Origin: Marinobacter nauticus
GTDB taxonomy: Bacteria; Pseudomonadota; Gammaproteobacteria; Enterobacterales; Shewanellaceae
Direction of reading: 5' to 3'
Assembly: GCA_019801015.1 (NCBI GenBank)
Contig: JAHVJZ010000010.1
Coordinates: 74,872 to 98,871 of the forward strand
Length of the DNA: 24,000 bases
A program made the translations under genes and the position numbers. The stretch's first letter is position 1. The number at the start of each line of letters is the position of its first letter. This document shows, one piece after another, positions 5,782-15,945 of the stretch. Under the pieces are notes generated by a model. It searched no databases, had not been told where the DNA came from, and was given only the letters and a program-made list of their open reading frames with translations.

Positions 5782-6519
5782 TCAAGTGGAGTTCCGCCTG
5801 ACGTTAAGGTCTTCGATAACGTGGTGATAGGCCAGTGTGACGATCACTTGCTCTTTGGTTTTTACGTCGCACTTGAACTTCAGCTTTTCCAGATGAAAAC
5901 GCACCGTTCGCTCCGAGATTTTCATCTTCCTGGCCGCTTGGGCGGCCGTCAGTCCCATCGCCAGCCATTGGGCACATTCACGTTCTCGTGCCGTCAGTTT
6001 GCGCATTAATTCGTTGATCTTTGATTGAGTGGCTAACTGATTAACCTGTTGATAAAAGGCCGTGCTCAGTACGCGAAGTCGCTCGCCATGTTCGGTCAGC
6101 CACTTTTCCGCTGATTCCCTACGAGGTAGCACATAGCCAAGACCTGATAAGTTGGTGCCGGTAAACAGTACATCGCTGACGCCATTGGACATGTTGAAGC
6201 TTGCGGCTTCGTTCCAGTATTCATTCAGCGCTTTGGTGCGCTCAAAAAGCCGCTGAACATAAGGCCAGGTGAACTGGGAAGCAGTGACTTTGCCAACAGA
6301 TATTGTCGGGTCGATATCGACATAACCGCACTCGAAATACTGGTTAATCCAGTCCTGCGGGTAATCACCCACCGCCTTCAGCACTTCGCCTGTGCTGTTC
6401 GATATTCTGAAAAAGCAAAACCGCTCTATGCCCATATCGGCGGTGATTGTCTTAAATGCAATGTTCAGCCCGTCTTCCGAATGACAGTGGAATAGCTTTC
6501 CAAGAACTTCGATATCCAT
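5782..6519 (-). CDS. LuxR-family AHL-type quorum-sensing receptor/regulator (a LuxR solo within this window)
   Basis: The N-terminal autoinducer-binding hallmarks keep TraR-like spacing in DWINQYFECGYVDIDPTISVGKVTASQFTW...(28 aa)...G: W, Y at +4, D at +9, P at +10, W at +15, G at +28. The C-terminal LuxR HTH reads LTARERECAQWLAMGLTAAQAARKMKISERTVRFHLEKL. ATG at 6519 is preferred over the two upstream GTGs. Confidence 0.9.
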   Translation of the reverse strand: MDIEVLGKLFHCHSEDGLNIAFKTITADMGIERFCFFRISNSTGEVLKAVGDYPQDWINQYFECGYVDIDPTISVGKVTASQFTWPYVQRLFERTKALNEYWNEAASFNMSNGVSDVLFTGTNLSGLGYVLPRRESAEKWLTEHGERLRVLSTAFYQQVNQLATQSKINELMRKLTARERECAQWLAMGLTAAQAARKMKISERTVRFHLEKLKFKCDVKTKEQVIVTLAYHHVIEDLNVRRNST

Positions 6520-6592
6520 CACCACACCCCATACACGTCAAGGCCAAATATCAGAGGAGCAAGCAGCGGATAAATATAGAAGCAACGAAGAC

Positions 6593-6612
6593 ACCTGTCA
6601 GATCTGACAGGC
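6593..6612. promoter_or_regulatory. lux-box-like site ACCTGTCAGATCTGACAGGC, containing a perfect 18-bp palindrome at 6594-6611
   Basis: Read directly from the sequence. It matches the V. fischeri lux box ACCTGTAGGATCGTACAGGT at 15/20 positions, including the CTG-N10-CAG core. It sits in the divergent region between luxR (start 6519) and the lipoprotein operon (start 6767). Confidence 0.55.
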
Positions 6613-6766
6613 CGGCCTCCGGAAGAAGCAACTAAGGTGTAATGAATTCAGGCCGGTGCAGCGTGCAGGGTTTCGCGCCGGCGTAAGGCTAAGTCGTTGT
6701 TCTGCATAAATTTAACAAAGCTTGTGGCCGAGGCGAAAGCGCTGGCGGCTGGTTGAGGATTGTGTG

Positions 6767-7642
6767 ATGACTAAGTTTGCTTCCATTGCCGTTGTCGTAC
6801 CTCTCACGCTGGCGGGGTGTCAGATGACTGAACAGGACCAACAGACGTTTTCAGCGTTAGGTGGAGCGGTATTGGGCGGTGTGGTTGGCAGTCAGGTTGG
6901 CGGAGGCTCAGGTAAAGCCATCGCGACCGTTGCCGGGGTCGCTCTCGGCGCCTGGCTGGGCTCCACGCTGTATAAGAACTTGTCGCAAAACGATCAGGAA
7001 GACCTCAGCGCCGAAACGGTTCGGGTGCTGGAAACTGCCGGTGATGGTAGTGAAGAAGTCTGGCGGGGCGAGGACAGCAATACTGAGGTGACCATCACCC
7101 CGACGGAAACCAAAACGGCTCAGCGTGAAACCGCGATGGTAAAGCTGGAAAAGGTGGCGGTTCCACCAACGCTCGAGATCATTAATAAACCCTACCGCGT
7201 CACGGCGAATACCAATATCCGGCAGGGACCCGGCACTGACTATGACATCATGGGAACGCTCAAATCCGGCGCCAGCTTTAATGTGGTGGGTCAGGTTCAG
7301 AATCGCTCATGGTTGCTGGTTGAAAAGAATGGCGTGTCGGTTGGGTACATTTATGGCCCGTTGGCTGAGCCACTGACAGAGGCCTCAAACTCGCCGGTTC
7401 AAGCCCATGCCGAGGCGACGAAACAGCTTCGCCCGCCGCTGGATCTGGATCAGATCCAGCTGGAGCAGAAGGAAGTCACAGAACTGGACGACATTACCCT
7501 GAACGAACCGCAAAACGTTGTTGCGGATGATGTCACGGTGCAAACCACCTGTCGGACGCTCCAGTACTCCGACGAGAACAGCCAGCAAAAAGAGCAGTTC
7601 CAGGCATGCAAGGCATCAGATGGCGCATGGGAGATTTTGTGA
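6767..7642 (+). CDS. Lipoprotein with a glycine-zipper (17-kDa-antigen-like) segment and a bacterial SH3 domain
   Basis: ATG at 6767 lies 7 nt after GAGGA. Signal and lipobox: MTKFASIAVVVPLTLAG|C. Glycine zipper: GGAVLGGVVGSQVGGGSGKAIATVAGVALGAWLG. SH3_3-like: YRVTANTNIRQGPGTDYDIMGTLKSGASFNVVGQVQNRSWLLVEKNGVSVGYIY. Confidence 0.8.
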   Translation: MTKFASIAVVVPLTLAGCQMTEQDQQTFSALGGAVLGGVVGSQVGGGSGKAIATVAGVALGAWLGSTLYKNLSQNDQEDLSAETVRVLETAGDGSEEVWRGEDSNTEVTITPTETKTAQRETAMVKLEKVAVPPTLEIINKPYRVTANTNIRQGPGTDYDIMGTLKSGASFNVVGQVQNRSWLLVEKNGVSVGYIYGPLAEPLTEASNSPVQAHAEATKQLRPPLDLDQIQLEQKEVTELDDITLNEPQNVVADDVTVQTTCRTLQYSDENSQQKEQFQACKASDGAWEIL

Positions 7643-9939
7643 TGAAAACCCCAATCCTTCTGGTTGCAGTCCTTTGTGGCGTGTTGGCCTGTTCTCCGGT
7701 GTCCGAAGGCGACAAAGTCGCCATTCCTCTGACCAGTGAGCAGCCTCATCTGTACGGCTATGCCGAAGGCGTGGTCGAGTCAGTAAAGGGGGAGACGGTC
7801 ATCGTTAAGGTTGTTACCGCGACGGACGTACCACAAGGCCATAAATACCAAAGGGATATTGAGGCTCGGGGCAGTCTGTATTTGAGCAAAGATGAATTTG
7901 TCGATGTTCAGCAGGCCCAGACGCAATACGCTGAACGTAAGGCCTTCGCACAACAGTTGCAGCGCCTGAATACCTCAATATTTCTAACCTCCGGCAAGGG
8001 CATATCCTGCGGCCAGTTCAGCCACTTTGCCAAAACCACGTCGATTCCTGAGGCTCAGTCGATAGGGGTACTGTGCGATTACATCGGCCAACATGCCGCT
8101 GAAATTGATCGAACCGTAAAGCCTGTAAAACCTCATGAGGTCGCTGAGGCAATGAGTGCTGAAACAACCGGCGTCATGCTTGGCTACTTGGACCTCTACA
8201 TTCCGGTGGCAGAGAGTGTAGAGCAGGCGCTGGAAACCGTGACCTGGAGAGCCACCGGACACTCAGAACAGGTGGTTCAACGGTTAAGAGCCATCGCTGA
8301 ACAAAATCGGAATACCCCTGCTGAGGCACTTTACGACGTTACTGTCGACAATCTGTCAGTGCCGGTGGCCCACTTCCTCCTGTCGCTGTTCCGGCAGGAC
8401 TCTCAGTTTGGCATCCGAGCCAGGCAGTTCAGTGAGGATGCGGCCAGAAACTACTTTGATGCGATGCAACGCATCGTGGTTAAGGTTGCAGCGTCTGAGG
8501 GGGGAAGCGGCACGTATTCCATGGCTCTGTCGGATCTCGAGAGCCAACGGAAAGCCGCGTTTATCTCGGAAAAGCAGGAGGCAGCACTTTCACAGGTATT
8601 TTTCAGCGAAGGGTTTGCTGATCTATCCACCGAAGCCGGCGTTGCAGAAGCGATTGAGAAACTGAAAGCCGAATCCTCAAGCTTCAGCCAGATAGTGGGA
8701 CAGCCCATAGTCGATGCTGAGGTGGAGTCCAGGATTGCAGAACGACTGGCCAAAAGAGAGGAAGCGCGGTTGGCTCGGGAGCGACATGATGCTGAACAAG
8801 CCGAGCAACAATTGGAGAACGCCCGTGCCAGCCTGTTGAGCCAGGTGGATACTGAGCAACTGTTTTCCCCTGCCGCGGCAGAAGCCGCTTATCAGGTGCT
8901 GAAAGACCAGAACGATGCCCTCTACCCGGAACAGAACTTAATCACCGAATCTGACCGCCAGATGTTGCTGGCGGCCGTGCAAGAGAACCTACCGGGCAAA
9001 GAGGTGGCAACGACAGAAGCCACAGAGAAACTGGCCAATAGCGTTCCGCTCGAACATATCATGCCGATGGATAAGGTGGCGGGTACCGTTGCTGCGTTAC
9101 AGATGGAAATTGATGATATTGCTGTCAGAACCGGGCTCCAAATCCCGACGGAACAGCTGACGGACATCCTGAACCAGCGCAGCAAAGATGCCACGGTGTT
9201 GATGATGAAAGAGAAGCCGTTTGAGATGGAGACGGTGTGGCATGTCCGAATCTACGATCTTCAGTCTGATCAGCGTTGGAAATTTAAAGAAAGGGAAATC
9301 GTTGGCACGGTTGATATGGCCGATTGGGACAGCAGACGTGGCCAGGGCAACTGCACCTTCAAAGCCCCGTTAACGTCGCTGGGTTCTGAAATCGCTTATC
9401 CCTCTGCCTGGAGATGCAGAATCCAATACGTTCCTGTGACGGGGAATGTGGTGTTCAGTATTACCGGTATGATTGATGCACCACGAGGCGCTTTCAGGTC
9501 GTGGCATGGGAATAAGGGTTTATTACAAGAAAATGGTGAGTACCGAATAGTGCGCGGTGAAATGAACCGCTCCAAATCCTTTGTCGCCTATGAAATGTCG
9601 GTGGACCCATTTGCGCAGCAAATTTCACTCAGCGTGCCCACCACAGCTCATCGTACACTGGTGGGCCGCTCCACCAGCCTGGGATTAGAGGTGTACGCCT
9701 TGTCTGATCAGTCCGACTGGTGCAGTGAAGAGGTGAGTCTTCAGCTGGAATCGGCTCATTCCGGTTTTTTCACCAATGAGGAAAAGGTGTCTACTTTTGT
9801 CCGCAAGATTGGCAAAGCGATTGAATCCGAATGCAGCAGTGTGAAAAGCACAAAACTGTACGGTACCAACGGCGGTGACGAGGTGTTGTATCACGCGAGT
9901 GCGACTAAGGAAGAGGAGTGGGTGCCCGTCGGGCTTTGA
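7642..9939 (+). CDS. Large lipoprotein of unknown function (765 aa) with a central coiled-coil-like segment
   Basis: Its start overlaps the upstream stop (TGATG; stop 7640-7642, ATG 7642-7644). Signal and lipobox: MKTPILLVAVLCGVLA|C. A charged helical stretch reads RIAERLAKREEARLARERHDAEQAEQQLENARASLL. I recognise no family motif. Confidence 0.8.
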   Translation: MKTPILLVAVLCGVLACSPVSEGDKVAIPLTSEQPHLYGYAEGVVESVKGETVIVKVVTATDVPQGHKYQRDIEARGSLYLSKDEFVDVQQAQTQYAERKAFAQQLQRLNTSIFLTSGKGISCGQFSHFAKTTSIPEAQSIGVLCDYIGQHAAEIDRTVKPVKPHEVAEAMSAETTGVMLGYLDLYIPVAESVEQALETVTWRATGHSEQVVQRLRAIAEQNRNTPAEALYDVTVDNLSVPVAHFLLSLFRQDSQFGIRARQFSEDAARNYFDAMQRIVVKVAASEGGSGTYSMALSDLESQRKAAFISEKQEAALSQVFFSEGFADLSTEAGVAEAIEKLKAESSSFSQIVGQPIVDAEVESRIAERLAKREEARLARERHDAEQAEQQLENARASLLSQVDTEQLFSPAAAEAAYQVLKDQNDALYPEQNLITESDRQMLLAAVQENLPGKEVATTEATEKLANSVPLEHIMPMDKVAGTVAALQMEIDDIAVRTGLQIPTEQLTDILNQRSKDATVLMMKEKPFEMETVWHVRIYDLQSDQRWKFKEREIVGTVDMADWDSRRGQGNCTFKAPLTSLGSEIAYPSAWRCRIQYVPVTGNVVFSITGMIDAPRGAFRSWHGNKGLLQENGEYRIVRGEMNRSKSFVAYEMSVDPFAQQISLSVPTTAHRTLVGRSTSLGLEVYALSDQSDWCSEEVSLQLESAHSGFFTNEEKVSTFVRKIGKAIESECSSVKSTKLYGTNGGDEVLYHASATKEEEWVPVGL

Positions 9940-9991: not shown

Positions 9992-10273
9992 ATGAAATGG
10001 TGTCTTATCGGCCTGTTGATGGTTCTGTATTCTGCCAGTGCGATATCTGGACCCACAGTCAATGTTAAGAGCTGTGCCTTAATATTTTACGAGGAGGAGG
10101 CTGGAGGTTCCTACGCTTACACCATCATGAACATCGAAGACACGATTATGATTGTTTCCGACCAGGGGATATTGGTCCGGCATGGAGATGTGCTGTTGAC
10201 TGTCGAAAAAGACAAGATGAAAGTGTCTCAGAAAGTGTTGATTGACACTTATGTCGCCTGCTCTAAATCCTAG
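9992..10273 (+). CDS. Small secreted protein (93 aa), unknown function
   Basis: GAGGG lies 6 nt upstream of the ATG. Signal peptide: MKWCLIGLLMVLYSASA|ISG. It sits 52 nt downstream of the 765-aa gene and is followed by a terminator. Confidence 0.6.
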   Translation: MKWCLIGLLMVLYSASAISGPTVNVKSCALIFYEEEAGGSYAYTIMNIEDTIMIVSDQGILVRHGDVLLTVEKDKMKVSQKVLIDTYVACSKS

Positions 10274-10292: not shown

Positions 10293-10325
10293 AAAAAAAG
10301 GCTGAACCGCAGTCCAGCCTTTTTA
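10293..10325. terminator. Bidirectional rho-independent terminator between convergent genes
   Basis: The sequence AAAAAAAGGCTG..(loop)..CAGCCTTTTT has an A-run on the left and a T-run on the right. It lies between the stops at 10273 (+) and 10341 (-). Confidence 0.6.
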
Positions 10326-10340
10326 AAGAGCGCATCAGGC

Positions 10341-13300
10341 TTAGTCTATCAGCACCTGCTCGGTCAATCTGTCAGGTAAGATGGCGACATAGCCTTGCGA
10401 TGCATACATGTTTCCTTCATCGATTCTAAAAACCGCCAACTTCTTATCTCTGGCATTGTACAGCATCTTTTGACTCGTACTGGTGAACTCCCATGTCTCG
10501 CCAAAAGCGGCGCGGTCATGGATAAACTTAACGAGCGGAGTGTTTTCCGGATCAAGTCTTATCAGCACATCAATAGGGCCCCATTTGCTGAGATTTTCGA
10601 CATCAGCGTCATTTTCTTTATTGTGTTTTTTCCATACGTTGGCCCCACTATTGAATATGTTGGTGTTTGGTACGAGGCTATAGTACTCGCCATCGCTACC
10701 TTTCAATAATGGACCGTTGTCGAGAGTGGCGTTCCTGAAATAAAGTAGGGGTGATATAACTTCAAAAGTTAAATCTTCGCTCAAACTGATATAGTTCAAG
10801 TTCTGCTTTGACGTACCATTATCGGTAGAGGATAGTGCTCTTGTTATATTGCTCACCTCTGCTGTCCGTATCACGTAACGTTTTAGTTGACGATTTTTGT
10901 CCATATATATCATCACTCTCTCTTCCGAGATTTCAGTAAAACTGACTACGGTATTAAAGTCTTCCGGGAGCGTAATTTTTTCGTATCCGTTGGTTCGGAG
11001 TCGGTAATAGTTGCCTGAAACCGACACACCAATAGGGAAAAATGTAGCAGAATAGTATCCGGCATTGGTGACATTGATGATTGTATCGTCTTCTGGAGTT
11101 GCGTACTTAATGAGTTCGTCTCCTTCTGCGCGGTAAACTTCACCATTATTCTTTAGGATCATGGTGTATCGGGTATAGCGTGGCGTAGAAGGACCCGTTG
11201 TGAGCTTTACGTCTTCCATCCACAGCCTGGGCATTTTCCAACTGCCGCTAAATCCCCCAAGCCCGTGTTCGCCAAAGCCAATTCCCCATAACTTATTGTC
11301 TTTGGTTAAAAGGCCGCTCAAGCCCTTGTAGGCAGTTATTGCTATTGCACGAACATTCTGTGGCAAACAAGCGAGTGACGGATTGGCCTCGACATCAGAG
11401 ACAAGTTCCGAATAGCTATAAGTGCCCTCTTTTAGCTTGTTCAGGTAACTCATGCTTATGGAGGGATCAAACCTGTTGCAGCCTTCACCAATATAATAGT
11501 AAGGCATCACATCGTCACTCAGTGTTGTTTGCATTTGGCCATTGGCATCAAAAAAGCCAACTTCACTTCGATTTGGATGGATTAAAAATGGCGTTGAGCC
11601 AAAGAATAATATTCTTCCATCCTTGGTGAATACCCATTGATATGGATAAGACTGTTGGTTAGGCACTGCGTGGGTGATAATGGGAGCGTTTGACTTTGTG
11701 TCCATAAAGCCGACAAAAGTGTTTGCGACCGAATTTACTGATGGCAGAGAGTCGGAGGCATAGTCTGCTGCAGGAATGCTTTTCTGGGTGTACGGTTTTC
11801 CATCCGCATCCGTCCACATCTCTCCGGTGTTAGGGTTTATAAAGATGGTGTTACTGACAGGTTGTCCCGTTACCGCATCGACTTGTGTGATGCTATAACC
11901 GTCCTTTGTACGCACTGGCATTCCGTTGGTATCCAGTTGCAGGGCGATGTCATTGCCATTCCCGGAGGTTAGGACTGCGCCATATGCGTCCACCACATCA
12001 TTGTCTTCGTTGACGATGAGCCCTGGCTTTACGAGTGCTGGGTCACCGGAGGCATCGGTCACCGGGTTTCCATTGCTGTCGGTTTGCACCACCTTCACTG
12101 CGCCGGTGGGATTGCCCTGGTTGTCTACCACCTCCAGCAGCAAATTGCCGTTGATGTCCCGGTCAATGCCGGTTTCGCTGCTGTCGATGGGTCGCAGTTC
12201 ATAGCCTTCAGGACCGAGGGTAATGGCGTCACCGGACGCATCAGTCAACCGGTCGCCGACAAGAAAATCCGGCGCGGTGCTGACAGAGGCAGTACCATTC
12301 TCACCCATCGACACGGTGGCGCCGTTGGCGGAGACCAAGTCACCAAAGCGGTCATAAACGTCGACCACCAGATTGCCGCTGGCGTCAGTAACCAATTCCC
12401 CCTCGTTGGTGTAGGTGGGCCTGAACTGCTGATTGCTGTCGTTGGTGACCAGATCGCCATTGCCATCAATCAGGTAGCCGTCTTCATTAACCAGCACGTC
12501 CGGCAGCGGGTTCAGGGTGGCATTGCCGTTTTCGTCCACCACCAATTCGCCTTTGTCGCCGGTTGCTGCGCCGGTGTCCGGGTCAATCACATCAACAATC
12601 AGGTTGCCGTCCGGGGAGGTAACCAGATCGCCATTGTCATCAGTAACGGCTTCCACTTCCTGCTGCTCGCCACCCACTGACACTTCCAGATTGTCGCCGT
12701 TGCTGTCGGTGATCGGCTGACCCGGCTCGATGATGAGATCCGGGGCGGTGCCGATGGTCACGGAGCCATCGTTACCCATGGTGGCGGTGGCGCCGTTGGC
12801 GGTAACCAGTTCGTCGTTGGCATTGTAAACGTCCAGTATCGGATTGCCATCGGCGTCAGTGATCAGCTCGCCGCTGTCGTTGTAGGTGGGTTTGAACTTC
12901 TGGCCCTGATCGTTGGTGACCAGATCGCCGTTGCCATCAATCAGGTAGCCATCGTCGTTAATCAACACCGCTGGCAGCGGCTCCAGAGTGGCGTTGCCGT
13001 TTTCATCCACCACCAGCTCACCCTTGTCACCAGTGGCTTCACCGGTGTCCGGGTCAATCACATCCACAATCGGATTGCCGTCCGGCGAGGAAATCAGATC
13101 GCCATTGTCATCAGTAACGGCTTCCACTTCCTGCTGCTCGCCATCCACCGTCACTTCCAGGTTGTCGCCGTTGCCGTCGGTAATTGGCTGACCGGGCTCG
13201 ATGATGAATCCCGGGGCGGTGCCGATGCTCACGGAGCCGTCGTTACCCATGGTGGCGGTGGCGCCATTGGCGGTAACCAGGTCGTCGTTGGCGCTGTACA

Positions 13301-15161
13301 CGTCCAGTACCGGATTGCCATCGGCGTCGGTGATCAGTTCGCCGTTGTCGTTGTAGGTGGGTTTGAACTTCTGGCCCTGATCGTTGGTGACCAGATCACC
13401 GTTGCCATCAACCAGGTAGCCTTCGTCATTGACCAGCACATCCGGCAGCGGGTTCAGGGTGGCGTTGCCGTTTTTATCGAACACCAGTTCGCCTTTGTCG
13501 CCGGTAGTTTCGCCGGTGTTCGGGTCAATCACATCGACAATCAGGTTACCGTCCGGAGAGTGGACAAAGTTTCCGTTTTCATCGGTGACCGGCACCACTT
13601 CATGCGCTTCACCATCCACGTCGACCCTTATGGCGTCGCCTTCAAGGTCTGTGATTGGGTGCTCTGGGAGCGCGATTGAACCGGGCTTTCGGCCGCTTAA
13701 GGTCCCTTCGGATTGGTTGTAGGAATCGGCTCTAGCCTCAGACAGGGTGCCATCCCGGTGGTAGGTGTCGACGATCACATTGCCCTGTTGGTCAAAGAGA
13801 ACGCTGCCATCCTCATTGCGGGACGGTTTAATCCATAAGCCGTCGCTGGTGCTGAAGCGGCTGCCTTCCGGACTCACCAGATAGCCCTGGCTATCCACAA
13901 TCAGCCCGGGTTCCTTGAGGATCGGGCTGCCGTCCGGATGGGCCATTGGTTTGCCGTTGTCATCGGTTTTCACCACCAGCAGTTCGCCGGTGGGATTGCC
14001 GCTGTGGTCGACAACCTCCAGCAGAACATCGCCATTGATGTCTGTGGTGATGCCGGCAGCATGATTCATCGGGCGTAACTGGTAACCGTCCGGCCCATAG
14101 GTGATGGGGTTGCCGGAGAGATCAGTAAGCCGGTCGCCTAGCAGAAGTCCGGGGGCGGGTTTAACGCTGGCAACGCCACTGTCATCCACCGCCACGGTCG
14201 CGCCGTTTTCGCTGACCAGATCACCGTTGGGGGAATACACATCCACGACGACGTTGCCATTGGTGTCGGTGACCAGTTCACCACTGTCGGTATAAGTGGG
14301 CTTGAAGCTTTGGTTTTGATCGTTGGTGACCAGATTGCCATCGCGATCAACCAGGTAGCCCTGATCATTCACCAGAACCGGCGGCAGGGGGCCGATGGTG
14401 GGGTTGTTGTCTTCATCAATGGTGAGCTCACCTTTGTCGCCACTGGGCTTGCCGGTGTCCGGATCGATAAGGTCGACCACGAGGTTGCCATCCGGAGAGG
14501 TCACCAGTGCGCCACTTTCATCGACAATTGGTCTCAGGGCCCATTGCTCGCCTCCGTCATCCACCAAAACCGGATTGCCATCAAGGTCGGTGAGGGAGTG
14601 GCCAGGCACCACCAGAACATCCGGGCCATTGCCCGTCAGCTCAGCGCTCTCTGTGTCCAGAGTGTTGGCTTTATTAGCGACCAGAGTGCCGTCGGTGGTA
14701 TGGGTATCGACAACGACGTTGCCTTTGCTGTCAAAGAGGATATTACCGTCGTTGTCCCTGGAAGGTTTGAGCAGCAGTCCACCGGTGGTGAGAATACGAT
14801 TTCCCTCGGTATCAACGAGGTAACCCTCATTGTCGATAATGGGATGGGAGGCCGGGAAGAAAGTCACTTCTCCGGCACTGTTCCGAATCGGTACGTTATC
14901 ACTATCCACCTCGATAAAGACGACTTCTCCAGACTCGGTGAGCTTAACCAGAATCCGGCCGTACTCATCCCGAATCAGATTTTGATTTTCAGAAAGTACC
15001 GCCTCGAAAGGGTAGAGATCGAAAGGTAGCGCTATTTTGCTTTCTTTTGAGGTTTGGTCATAGACATCGATCCCATCGCTGTTACAACCTGAAACGCCTG
15101 TCACGATAAACGCAGCAGCAATCAAATTTAATCTAAACGTCTTCATATTTATTAGTGCCAA
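10341..15161 (-). CDS. Giant surface lipoprotein (about 1600 aa) with Asp/Gly/Asn-rich tandem modules and a distinct C-terminal domain; putative adhesin or Ca-binding repeat protein
   Basis: Single uninterrupted ORF. Lipoprotein signal: MKTFRLNLIAAAFIVTGVSG|C. The start is either TTG at 15161 (GGGGA ~9 nt upstream) or ATG at 15146. Motifs of the type D-x-D/N-G-N-x-(I/V)-V-D and GYL(V/I)D recur, and GDKGEL recurs at residues 242, 555, 712 and 869. The last ~500 aa are non-repetitive. Confidence 0.9.
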   Translation of the reverse strand: MALINMKTFRLNLIAAAFIVTGVSGCNSDGIDVYDQTSKESKIALPFDLYPFEAVLSENQNLIRDEYGRILVKLTESGEVVFIEVDSDNVPIRNSAGEVTFFPASHPIIDNEGYLVDTEGNRILTTGGLLLKPSRDNDGNILFDSKGNVVVDTHTTDGTLVANKANTLDTESAELTGNGPDVLVVPGHSLTDLDGNPVLVDDGGEQWALRPIVDESGALVTSPDGNLVVDLIDPDTGKPSGDKGELTIDEDNNPTIGPLPPVLVNDQGYLVDRDGNLVTNDQNQSFKPTYTDSGELVTDTNGNVVVDVYSPNGDLVSENGATVAVDDSGVASVKPAPGLLLGDRLTDLSGNPITYGPDGYQLRPMNHAAGITTDINGDVLLEVVDHSGNPTGELLVVKTDDNGKPMAHPDGSPILKEPGLIVDSQGYLVSPEGSRFSTSDGLWIKPSRNEDGSVLFDQQGNVIVDTYHRDGTLSEARADSYNQSEGTLSGRKPGSIALPEHPITDLEGDAIRVDVDGEAHEVVPVTDENGNFVHSPDGNLIVDVIDPNTGETTGDKGELVFDKNGNATLNPLPDVLVNDEGYLVDGNGDLVTNDQGQKFKPTYNDNGELITDADGNPVLDVYSANDDLVTANGATATMGNDGSVSIGTAPGFIIEPGQPITDGNGDNLEVTVDGEQQEVEAVTDDNGDLISSPDGNPIVDVIDPDTGEATGDKGELVVDENGNATLEPLPAVLINDDGYLIDGNGDLVTNDQGQKFKPTYNDSGELITDADGNPILDVYNANDELVTANGATATMGNDGSVTIGTAPDLIIEPGQPITDSNGDNLEVSVGGEQQEVEAVTDDNGDLVTSPDGNLIVDVIDPDTGAATGDKGELVVDENGNATLNPLPDVLVNEDGYLIDGNGDLVTNDSNQQFRPTYTNEGELVTDASGNLVVDVYDRFGDLVSANGATVSMGENGTASVSTAPDFLVGDRLTDASGDAITLGPEGYELRPIDSSETGIDRDINGNLLLEVVDNQGNPTGAVKVVQTDSNGNPVTDASGDPALVKPGLIVNEDNDVVDAYGAVLTSGNGNDIALQLDTNGMPVRTKDGYSITQVDAVTGQPVSNTIFINPNTGEMWTDADGKPYTQKSIPAADYASDSLPSVNSVANTFVGFMDTKSNAPIITHAVPNQQSYPYQWVFTKDGRILFFGSTPFLIHPNRSEVGFFDANGQMQTTLSDDVMPYYYIGEGCNRFDPSISMSYLNKLKEGTYSYSELVSDVEANPSLACLPQNVRAIAITAYKGLSGLLTKDNKLWGIGFGEHGLGGFSGSWKMPRLWMEDVKLTTGPSTPRYTRYTMILKNNGEVYRAEGDELIKYATPEDDTIINVTNAGYYSATFFPIGVSVSGNYYRLRTNGYEKITLPEDFNTVVSFTEISEERVMIYMDKNRQLKRYVIRTAEVSNITRALSSTDNGTSKQNLNYISLSEDLTFEVISPLLYFRNATLDNGPLLKGSDGEYYSLVPNTNIFNSGANVWKKHNKENDADVENLSKWGPIDVLIRLDPENTPLVKFIHDRAAFGETWEFTSTSQKMLYNARDKKLAVFRIDEGNMYASQGYVAILPDRLTEQVLID
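12267..13679 (-). repeat. Three tandem in-frame 471-bp (157-aa) coding repeats inside the giant lipoprotein gene; a more diverged copy lies at ~14145-14615
   Basis: The GDKGEL anchors are exactly 157 aa apart. The antisense shadow ORFs at 12517, 12988 and ~13462 are near-identical (MALPFSSTT.SPLSPVA.PVSGSITSTI.LPSGE...) with a 471-nt offset. Confidence 0.85.
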
Positions 15162-15853: not shown

Positions 15854-15945
15854 TGGTAGGGGCGGTGGGATTCGAACCCACAACCTGCCGCTTATCTGGC
15901 GCCACGGAGTATAAACCCGCTGCTCTACCATTGAGCTACGCCCCC
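15854..15945 (-). tRNA. Atypical 92-nt tRNA-like gene with encoded CCA, a canonical acceptor/D/T core, and two consecutive anticodon-arm-like hairpins (loops UUUAUAC and CAGAUAA)
   Basis: Minus-strand read: GGGGGCG UA GCUC AAUGGUA GAGC A GCGGG UUUAUAC UCCGU GGCGC CAGAUAA GCGGC AGGUU GUGGG UUCGAAU CCCAC CGCCCCU A CCA. The acceptor has 7 bp (G1-U72 wobble), the D-loop has GG, and the T-loop is UUCGAAU. See findings for the ambiguity. Confidence 0.6.

Follow-up and report, generated by a model that had tools for sequence, protein, structure and literature searches.

What does a bacterium with no detectable synthase for acyl-homoserine lactones (AHLs) do with a receptor for them, and which of its genes would such a receptor control? 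This question is raised by a 24-kb stretch of the Marinobacter nauticus genome (contig JAHVJZ010000010.1), where a LuxR-family gene faces a lipoprotein operon across a palindromic box. We refer to the whole 24-kb stretch as the window, and all positions are counted from its first letter. A preliminary description, made from the sequence alone, had proposed that the LuxR protein (P0001) is a solo receptor that activates the neighbouring operon from the palindrome. We have followed this proposal up with family, structure and genome searches, and with a comparison of related loci. The protein is an AHL-type receptor and a true solo, and the box is kept in six loci, where it is flanked by a predicted promoter on either side.

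An AHL-type receptor without a synthase

Residues 18-158 of P0001 match the Autoind_bind family of Pfam (PF03472, E-value 3.8e-18, 65.9 bits against a cut-off of 23) and residues 174-227 match the GerE helix-turn-helix (PF00196, E-value 4e-13). The ATG at 6519 agrees with the N-termini of homologues. In the ligand pocket Y53, W57, Y61, D70, P71, W85 and G113 have the same residue numbers as in TraR, and the pocket residues align with their counterparts in TraR from NGR234, RhlR and LasR (HMMER, solved structures). The six TraR-spaced residues that the preliminary description had picked out are all among them. The DNA-binding domain keeps E179 and G189, the equivalents of TraR E178 and G188. 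Where TraR has L182, all seven clade members have an alanine (Ala183), and eight of the nine classical residues are retained in P0001.

The predicted fold tells the same story. An AlphaFold model, built with an alignment of seven sequences, has a predicted local distance difference test score (pLDDT) of 88.8, and its top Foldseek matches are LasR, TraR, QscR, RhlR, SdiA and CviR, with E-values down to 1e-13. The ligand-binding domain fits that of LasR with a template-modelling score of 0.83-0.85 and a root-mean-square deviation of 2.2 Å, and identity to the solved receptors in the structural alignments is 16-23%. The best NCBIfam match is SdiA, which is below threshold (60 bits against a cut-off of 350). 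By family, pocket residues and fold, P0001 is an AHL-type LuxR receptor, and we infer that its natural ligand is an AHL.

The claim that no luxI gene lies within 24 kb can be extended from the window to the whole genome. The host assembly comprises 4.2 Mb in 17 contigs and is scored as 100% complete; a six-frame search of it, which covered everything except one contig of 1591 bp, gave no match to the LuxI family (PF00765). The same search gave seven and three matches in two Mesorhizobium genomes, and is therefore able to detect LuxI. Synthases of the LuxM/AinS type (PF17327) gave no match in the host genome either, a search that had no PF17327-positive genome as a control and did not cover HdtS-type acyltransferases. 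Both synthase searches had been suggested by the preliminary description. Furthermore, P0001 is the only gene product in the genome with an autoinducer-binding domain. By these searches it is a true solo genome-wide, with no LuxI- or LuxM-type partner and no second AHL-type receptor found.

The relatives of the host are similar in this respect. LuxI is present in one of the 18 same-genus genomes and in four of the 61 genomes searched overall, therefore the host lineage is mostly without AHL signalling. LuxI was also not found in the Moritella and Thalassotalea strains that carry relatives of P0001, which makes all three of the searchable clade genomes negative, the host included.

A conserved box between two predicted promoters

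The box, CCTGTCAGATCTGACAGG, sits in the 247-bp spacer between luxR and the first lipoprotein gene, and direct reading confirms that it is a perfect 18-bp palindrome. Of the 20 positions from 6593 to 6612, 15 agree with the lux box of V. fischeri, which reproduces the earlier count, and the palindrome carries the CTG-N10-CAG arms of a lux box. Palindromy alone is not what makes the box significant. The genome holds 63 perfect palindromes of at least 18 bp where about 16-21 are expected, and many of the excess ones are terminators. The significance of this one comes from its place beside the sole AHL-type luxR gene and from its conservation in five other loci.

These loci belong to Moritella (L006), Shewanella (L007), Thalassotalea (L020) and two metagenome contigs (L101 and L113), and together with the window they make up the set of six that is used throughout. 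In all six an exact CTGTC-N6-GACAG core of 16 bp (6595-6610 in the window) is found 61-83 bp upstream of the luxR start. The arms are identical and the centre varies (GATC, AATC, AATA or ATTT), which is the pattern of a protein-binding site and not that of a hairpin. We predict that the box is the cognate operator of P0001.

The central GATC had been highlighted as a Dam site. The site is present, and a Dam-family methylase gene exists in the host genome. However, only two of the six orthologous boxes have a GATC, therefore we regard it as incidental and have rejected Dam control as a conserved feature.

Other copies of the palindrome, a check that the preliminary description had called for, are few and poorly placed. 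Four sites elsewhere in the genome are within three mismatches of the 18-mer, and all of them are inside long open reading frames (ORFs). The CTGTC-N6-GACAG core occurs exactly at seven other places in the genome, approximately the number expected by chance, and one of these (C5:122236), with a different centre, is intergenic. A second perfect 18-bp palindrome, CCTGT-N8-ACAGG at C13:14645-14662, lies within an ORF that looks ParB-like by eye and is most likely due to chance. From these counts, in which the intergenic core is the one exception, we have rejected a dispersed regulon; apparently the regulator acts at a single site on a single target next to it.

On the luxR side of the box a sigma-70 promoter is predicted. 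Its -35, CTGACA (6601-6596), is inside the box, and a spacer of 17 nucleotides (nt) separates it from the -10, TATATT (6578-6573). The arrangement is shared: in each of the six loci the luxR-proximal half-site, xTGACA, doubles as a -35 with 5-6 of 6 consensus matches, the spacer is 16-17 nt, and the -10 has the form TAnnnT with 4-5 of 6 matches (TATATT, TATAGT, TATTAT, TATAGT, TATTCT and TATATT). The box centre is at about -36.5 relative to the predicted luxR start in the window, and at -35.5 or -36.5 across the six loci. This overlap with the -35 of a strong luxR promoter is a feature that the preliminary description had not seen, and it probably reflects autoregulation, likely autorepression. 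Since the box forms the -35 of the luxR promoter in six loci, autoregulation is at least as well supported as activation of the operon.

On the far side the candidate promoter looks quite different. A TAnnnT hexamer is found 21-22 nt from the core in all six loci (TAAGGT, TACAAT, TAAAAT, TATAAT, TACAAT and TATAAT); at every other offset between 5 and 49 nt such a hexamer is found in at most two. The best -35 on this side has just 1-2 of 6 matches in five loci, including the window, and 4 of 6 in L113. With its centre at 6602.5, the box would lie at -42.5 relative to the predicted operon start in the window, and at -41.5 or -42.5 across the six loci. Class II activation by LuxR, TraR and LasR takes place from -42.5. 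The class II geometry that had been suggested for the operon is supported by this fixed hexamer and by the poor -35 in five of the six loci. A structured leader RNA or riboswitch ahead of the lipoprotein ATG was considered as a further candidate and rejected (fold z-score of -0.68, no Rfam match).

A proposed mechanism and its alternatives

The account that we favour, and hold to be reasonably probable, is that P0001 is a horizontally acquired AHL-type solo that uses one box to activate the lipoprotein operon and to damp the luxR promoter, with a foreign AHL as the signal. By binding as a dimer to the one palindrome that separates the divergent genes, P0001 would serve two back-to-back promoters. 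From -42.5 the bound receptor would recruit RNA polymerase, in the class II manner, to an operon promoter that lacks a -35, and would switch on a three-gene envelope operon (P0004, P0015 and P0003). The same bound receptor would occlude the -35 of the otherwise self-sufficient luxR promoter, resulting in negative autoregulation. Because the cell makes no AHL and the pocket is intact, AHL producers in the vicinity would supply the signal, on which the cell would eavesdrop.

Several observations weigh against this account. The TAAGGT hexamer of the window matches the -10 consensus at three of six positions and is the weakest of the six. The comparison loci are AT-rich, so that TAnnnT is fairly common in them, and the five are mutually related. 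A leader of 122 nt would follow the predicted operon start, and it has no recognisable structure. Close relatives of P0001 differ at two of the pocket positions, Y61W and P71S/N, and LuxI is missing from all three searchable clade genomes, so that the natural ligand may be something other than an AHL. The sequence cannot separate DNA binding by a ligand-bound receptor, the LuxR/TraR mode, from binding by a ligand-free one, the EsaR mode. Finally, at locus L100 a related regulator and box are found with no divergent gene, therefore autoregulation alone could explain the box.

This last point leads to an alternative that we consider unlikely but worth weighing, in which the palindrome is the autoregulatory operator of luxR and nothing else, the operon has a promoter of its own, and their adjacency results from co-transfer without co-regulation. 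It is in keeping with a box that is always near luxR and always forms its -35. It would also fit the variable distance between the box and the divergent start codon (93, 164 and 231 bp), and the lack of relationship among the divergent genes of most loci. However, it does not account for the far side of the box, where all six loci have a -10-like hexamer at a constant 21-22 nt and five have a poor -35. Nor does it account for a divergent gene that encodes a secreted protein or lipoprotein in six of six loci, or for the three-gene module common to the host and Shewanella.

The part that the ligand plays in our favoured account could also be the reverse. In the mode of EsaR and ExpR, ligand-free P0001 would bind the box, keep the operon on and the regulator low, and a foreign AHL would release it. 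For EsaR itself, repression of the regulator's own promoter and activation of the divergent one from a shared box are documented. A ligand-dependent activator would usually be idle in the host and in most of its relatives, since these produce no AHL. That said, the EsaR box lies over its own -10 and at about -60 of the activated promoter, not at -36 and -42, and the best sequence and fold matches of P0001 are TraR, RhlR, LasR and QscR, with no solved EsaR-type receptor among the matches. We think this mode quite improbable.

We give a similarly small chance to a receptor that, like some other LuxR solos, senses something other than an AHL, for example a metabolite of the cell itself or a compound derived from a host or an alga. 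In favour of this are the variation of the relatives at Y61 and P71 and the lack of LuxI in the three searchable clade genomes. Y61W is one change that is typical of LuxR solos that bind plant compounds. However, these are changes in relatives; P0001 keeps the six pocket residues plus Y53, the signature of the AHL binders SdiA and QscR, which are themselves solos or orphans.

It is very improbable that the palindrome is a hairpin (a terminator or RNA element) or a chance occurrence and not a protein site: a consensus scan does flag it as terminator-like on the minus strand, and perfect 18-bp palindromes number about 25 in the genome, close to the chance expectation, but it lies upstream of both genes and downstream of neither, its lux-box-like arms are conserved in six loci without compensatory change, and it has no Rfam match.

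Comparison with known systems

The two-domain architecture and the six pocket residues of P0001 are shared with the receptors of the LuxR/lux box system of V. fischeri, the TraR/tra box system and the LasR/las box system. These systems also resemble the window in having a dyad box with CTG-N10-CAG arms, a centre at -42.5 (predicted for the window) and a promoter without a -35. In these class II systems, as in the window, the regulator gene is divergent from its target, and the central CAGATCTG of the box occurs in the tra box as well. Unlike LuxR, TraR and LasR, P0001 has no synthase gene that could be found in its genome, and hence no autoinduction loop. Its candidate target is an envelope lipoprotein operon, and its box doubles as the regulator's own -35.

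EsaR has EsaI as its cognate partner and needs no ligand to be active. Its PesaR/PesaS region is like the window in having one palindromic box between divergent promoters, with the regulatory signs in the window being predicted ones. In Pantoea stewartii this shared box represses EsaR's own promoter and activates the divergent esaS promoter; it sterically blocks PesaR over the -10 and is located ~60 bp upstream of the esaS start (bioRxiv 10.1101/2025.04.03.643276). The box in the window differs by lying over the luxR -35 (-36.5) and at -42.5 of the opposite promoter.

The SdiA protein of Escherichia and Salmonella and the QscR protein of Pseudomonas aeruginosa are like P0001 in combining a canonical AHL pocket with the lack of a cognate synthase. 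These solos eavesdrop on foreign AHLs, and P0001 would be expected to respond to the AHLs of other bacteria too. Unlike these, P0001 is strain-specific, is encoded on an island and seems to control a regulon with a single, adjacent site, and it is not orthologous to either. The gene for SdiA is chromosomal and conserved, and its targets are dispersed.

The solos of Moritella, Shewanella, Thalassotalea and the metagenomes share 32-44% identity with P0001 over the full length, as well as the same box and two-promoter layout. Shewanella sp. 125m-1 has a lipoprotein pair as in the window, whereas Moritella, Thalassotalea and L113 have different cargo. In the literature we found general surveys of LuxR solos and nothing on this clade or its box. 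A survey from 2015 (PMC4338825) had already reported conserved palindromes in LuxR-solo promoters.

A LuxR solo with a lux-type box is a known kind of regulator, and P0001 is a well supported but ordinary example; the locus leaves the current understanding of LuxR-type regulation unchanged. What is specific here is a rare and undescribed marine clade, a compact two-promoter layout in six loci, a changing secreted cargo and an association with mobile DNA. Although LuxR solos are common, operator and target have been defined for few of them; here there is one candidate site and one adjacent operon. Six natural variants of one promoter layout provide a clean system in which to ask whether one box can both activate and repress. 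The same system is suited to asking which AHLs a marine solo hears, and what P0004 and P0015 do. It also illustrates how a lineage without a synthase might gain a response to the signals of other species by way of a small island.

The operon and its changing cargo

The features of the locus are listed in Table 1. The first lipoprotein, P0004, matches the Pfam families SH3_3 (E-value 1.7e-10) and Rick_17kDa_Anti (E-value 4.5e-07), and over its full length it shares 39% identity with the product of the Shewanella gene that occupies the corresponding place (L007). The third gene product, P0003, has no match in Pfam or NCBIfam.

Table 1. Features of the luxR locus, with positions in the window.
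Feature	Positions	Strand	Basis
luxR-family solo gene, 245 amino acids (P0001)	5782..6519	(-)	Pfam domains, pocket residues, fold match
luxR promoter (predicted sigma-70)	6573..6601	(-)	consensus scan, 10/12 matches; same layout in 6/6 loci
lux-type operator (predicted), perfect 18-bp palindrome	6594..6611	(.)	read directly; box kept in six loci
Divergent operon -10, TAAGGT (predicted, activator-dependent promoter)	6633..6638	(+)	TAnnnT at the same gap in 6/6 loci
Lipoprotein gene 1, 291 amino acids (P0004)	6767..7642	(+)	LAGC lipobox, glycine-zipper, bacterial SH3 domain
Lipoprotein gene 2, 765 amino acids (P0015)	7642..9939	(+)	TGATG overlap with gene 1
Small secreted protein, 93 amino acids, last gene of the operon (P0003)	9992..10273	(+)	signal-peptide-like N-terminus
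Terminator-like hairpin and T-run, closing the operon (predicted)	10300..10324	(+)	consensus scan

The second lipoprotein, P0015, is considerably rarer. It has no Pfam or NCBIfam match, and a word-index search returned only the protein itself. It is 24% identical over the full length (E-value 1e-49) to its counterpart of ~770 amino acids in the Shewanella locus, and an exhaustive search of 1.84 billion representatives found two full-length relatives, together with a few other proteins that share a C-terminal domain of ~100 amino acids. The AlphaFold model of P0015 has a small N-terminal beta domain, a long helical middle and a beta-rich C-terminus. With a pLDDT of 58.5 it is too poor for a fold-based assignment of function, which we dropped.

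The C-terminal domain of P0015 (residues ~662-761, window ~9625-9924) recurs in unrelated metagenome contigs, in a gene that neighbours a homologue of the glycine-zipper/SH3 lipoprotein. In two of these (L193:2992-3399 and L194:2633-3337) it is directly downstream of the lipoprotein homologue, and in a third (L195:2266-4188) it is two genes upstream. This points to the lipoprotein and a P0015-type domain as a conserved pair that may be independent of LuxR. The third contig also encodes a protein of 245 amino acids (L195:253-990) with a GerE domain and no recognisable autoinducer domain, whose helix-turn-helix is 44% identical to that of P0001. It heads the cluster that contains the lipoprotein homologue, which in this case is at 30% identity.

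The order of luxR, lipoprotein and ~770-residue lipoprotein is the same in the window and in Shewanella, and elsewhere the divergent cargo is of other kinds. In Moritella it consists of a PD40 propeller protein, a small protein and TraT, in Thalassotalea of a PKD-domain lipoprotein, in L113 of a PEP-CTERM-like protein and a secreted protein of 760 amino acids, and in L101 of a fragment of a secreted protein. Although the cargo is unrelated between most loci, the divergent gene begins with a signal peptide or a lipobox in all six. As read from these loci, the secreted-protein cargo that accompanies the regulator and its box changes from host to host.

A broader and more tentative idea, doubtful on present evidence, is that the regulator and its two-way promoter of ~80 bp form a portable eavesdropping cassette, which integrative elements would carry from one marine gammaproteobacterium to another and which would time and again have captured varied surface and secreted genes. 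If this is correct, the AHLs of neighbouring bacteria would remodel the envelope of the recipient, with a conserved sensor and promoter and an interchangeable cargo.

Origin and genomic neighbourhood

The luxR gene appears to be foreign to the host lineage. No orthologue of P0001 was found in 60 related genomes, where the best match has 27% identity, and P0015 was not found in them either. Between ~5660 and ~15850 the window has no DNA match in 18 same-genus genomes; such matches extend up to ~5606 on the left, in a yajD fragment, and resume on the right with a tRNA at 15854 and the genes beyond. The G+C content of this strain-specific stretch of ~10 kb is 0.44-0.59, with 0.50-0.55 for the luxR and lipoprotein genes, and that of the genome is 0.59. 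To its left is a recombinase-rich region with a Pfam integrase match. The mobile-element neighbourhood in the preliminary description is borne out, and the lack of orthologues and of DNA matches in related genomes marks the stretch as strain-specific.

The closest relatives of P0001, at 39-44% identity, were found in a collection of 5.8 billion sequences and come from Moritella sp. Urea-trap-13, Shewanella sp. 125m-1 and marine metagenomes; the relative in Thalassotalea sp. PLHSN55 has 32% identity. A search of genome contigs with P0001 alone returned nothing. With the clade alignment the same kind of search returned Thalassotalea as the sole true clade member, and metagenome contigs added L113. 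Because the gene is absent from relatives, the local G+C content is low and the nearest proteins are distant and from other genera, P0001 is a rare LuxR type of horizontal origin. Joint horizontal acquisition of luxR and its putative target genes is the best explanation of these patterns.

Some further observations concern the surroundings of these genes. The tRNA that bounds the strain-specific stretch on the right is a tRNA-Ile with a TAT anticodon (15854-15945, minus strand; ARAGORN and Rfam), and at 92 nt it is unusually long. Beside the operon is a gene for a giant lipoprotein of 1606 amino acids, the repeat-bearing part of which (11978-15136) has a paralogue on a second contig of the host genome (C1:918923-923026) with 87-92% DNA identity. 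A pair of phage-integrase-family genes (429-1052 and 5926-6594) frames the module in L113, with products of 207 and 222 amino acids that are 70% identical; these flanking tyrosine recombinases suggest a mobile or invertible segment.

A last observation concerns the sub-clade with Y61W (L008/L009 and L100; P0007 and P0006), which has a different palindrome ~64 bp ahead of luxR, and here the distance to a -10, a perfect TATAAT, is unchanged. The palindrome is GGTCTGGCCAGAC in L008/L009, and an imperfect version of it is found in L100. In this sub-clade the sequence of the box and the pocket residue change together.

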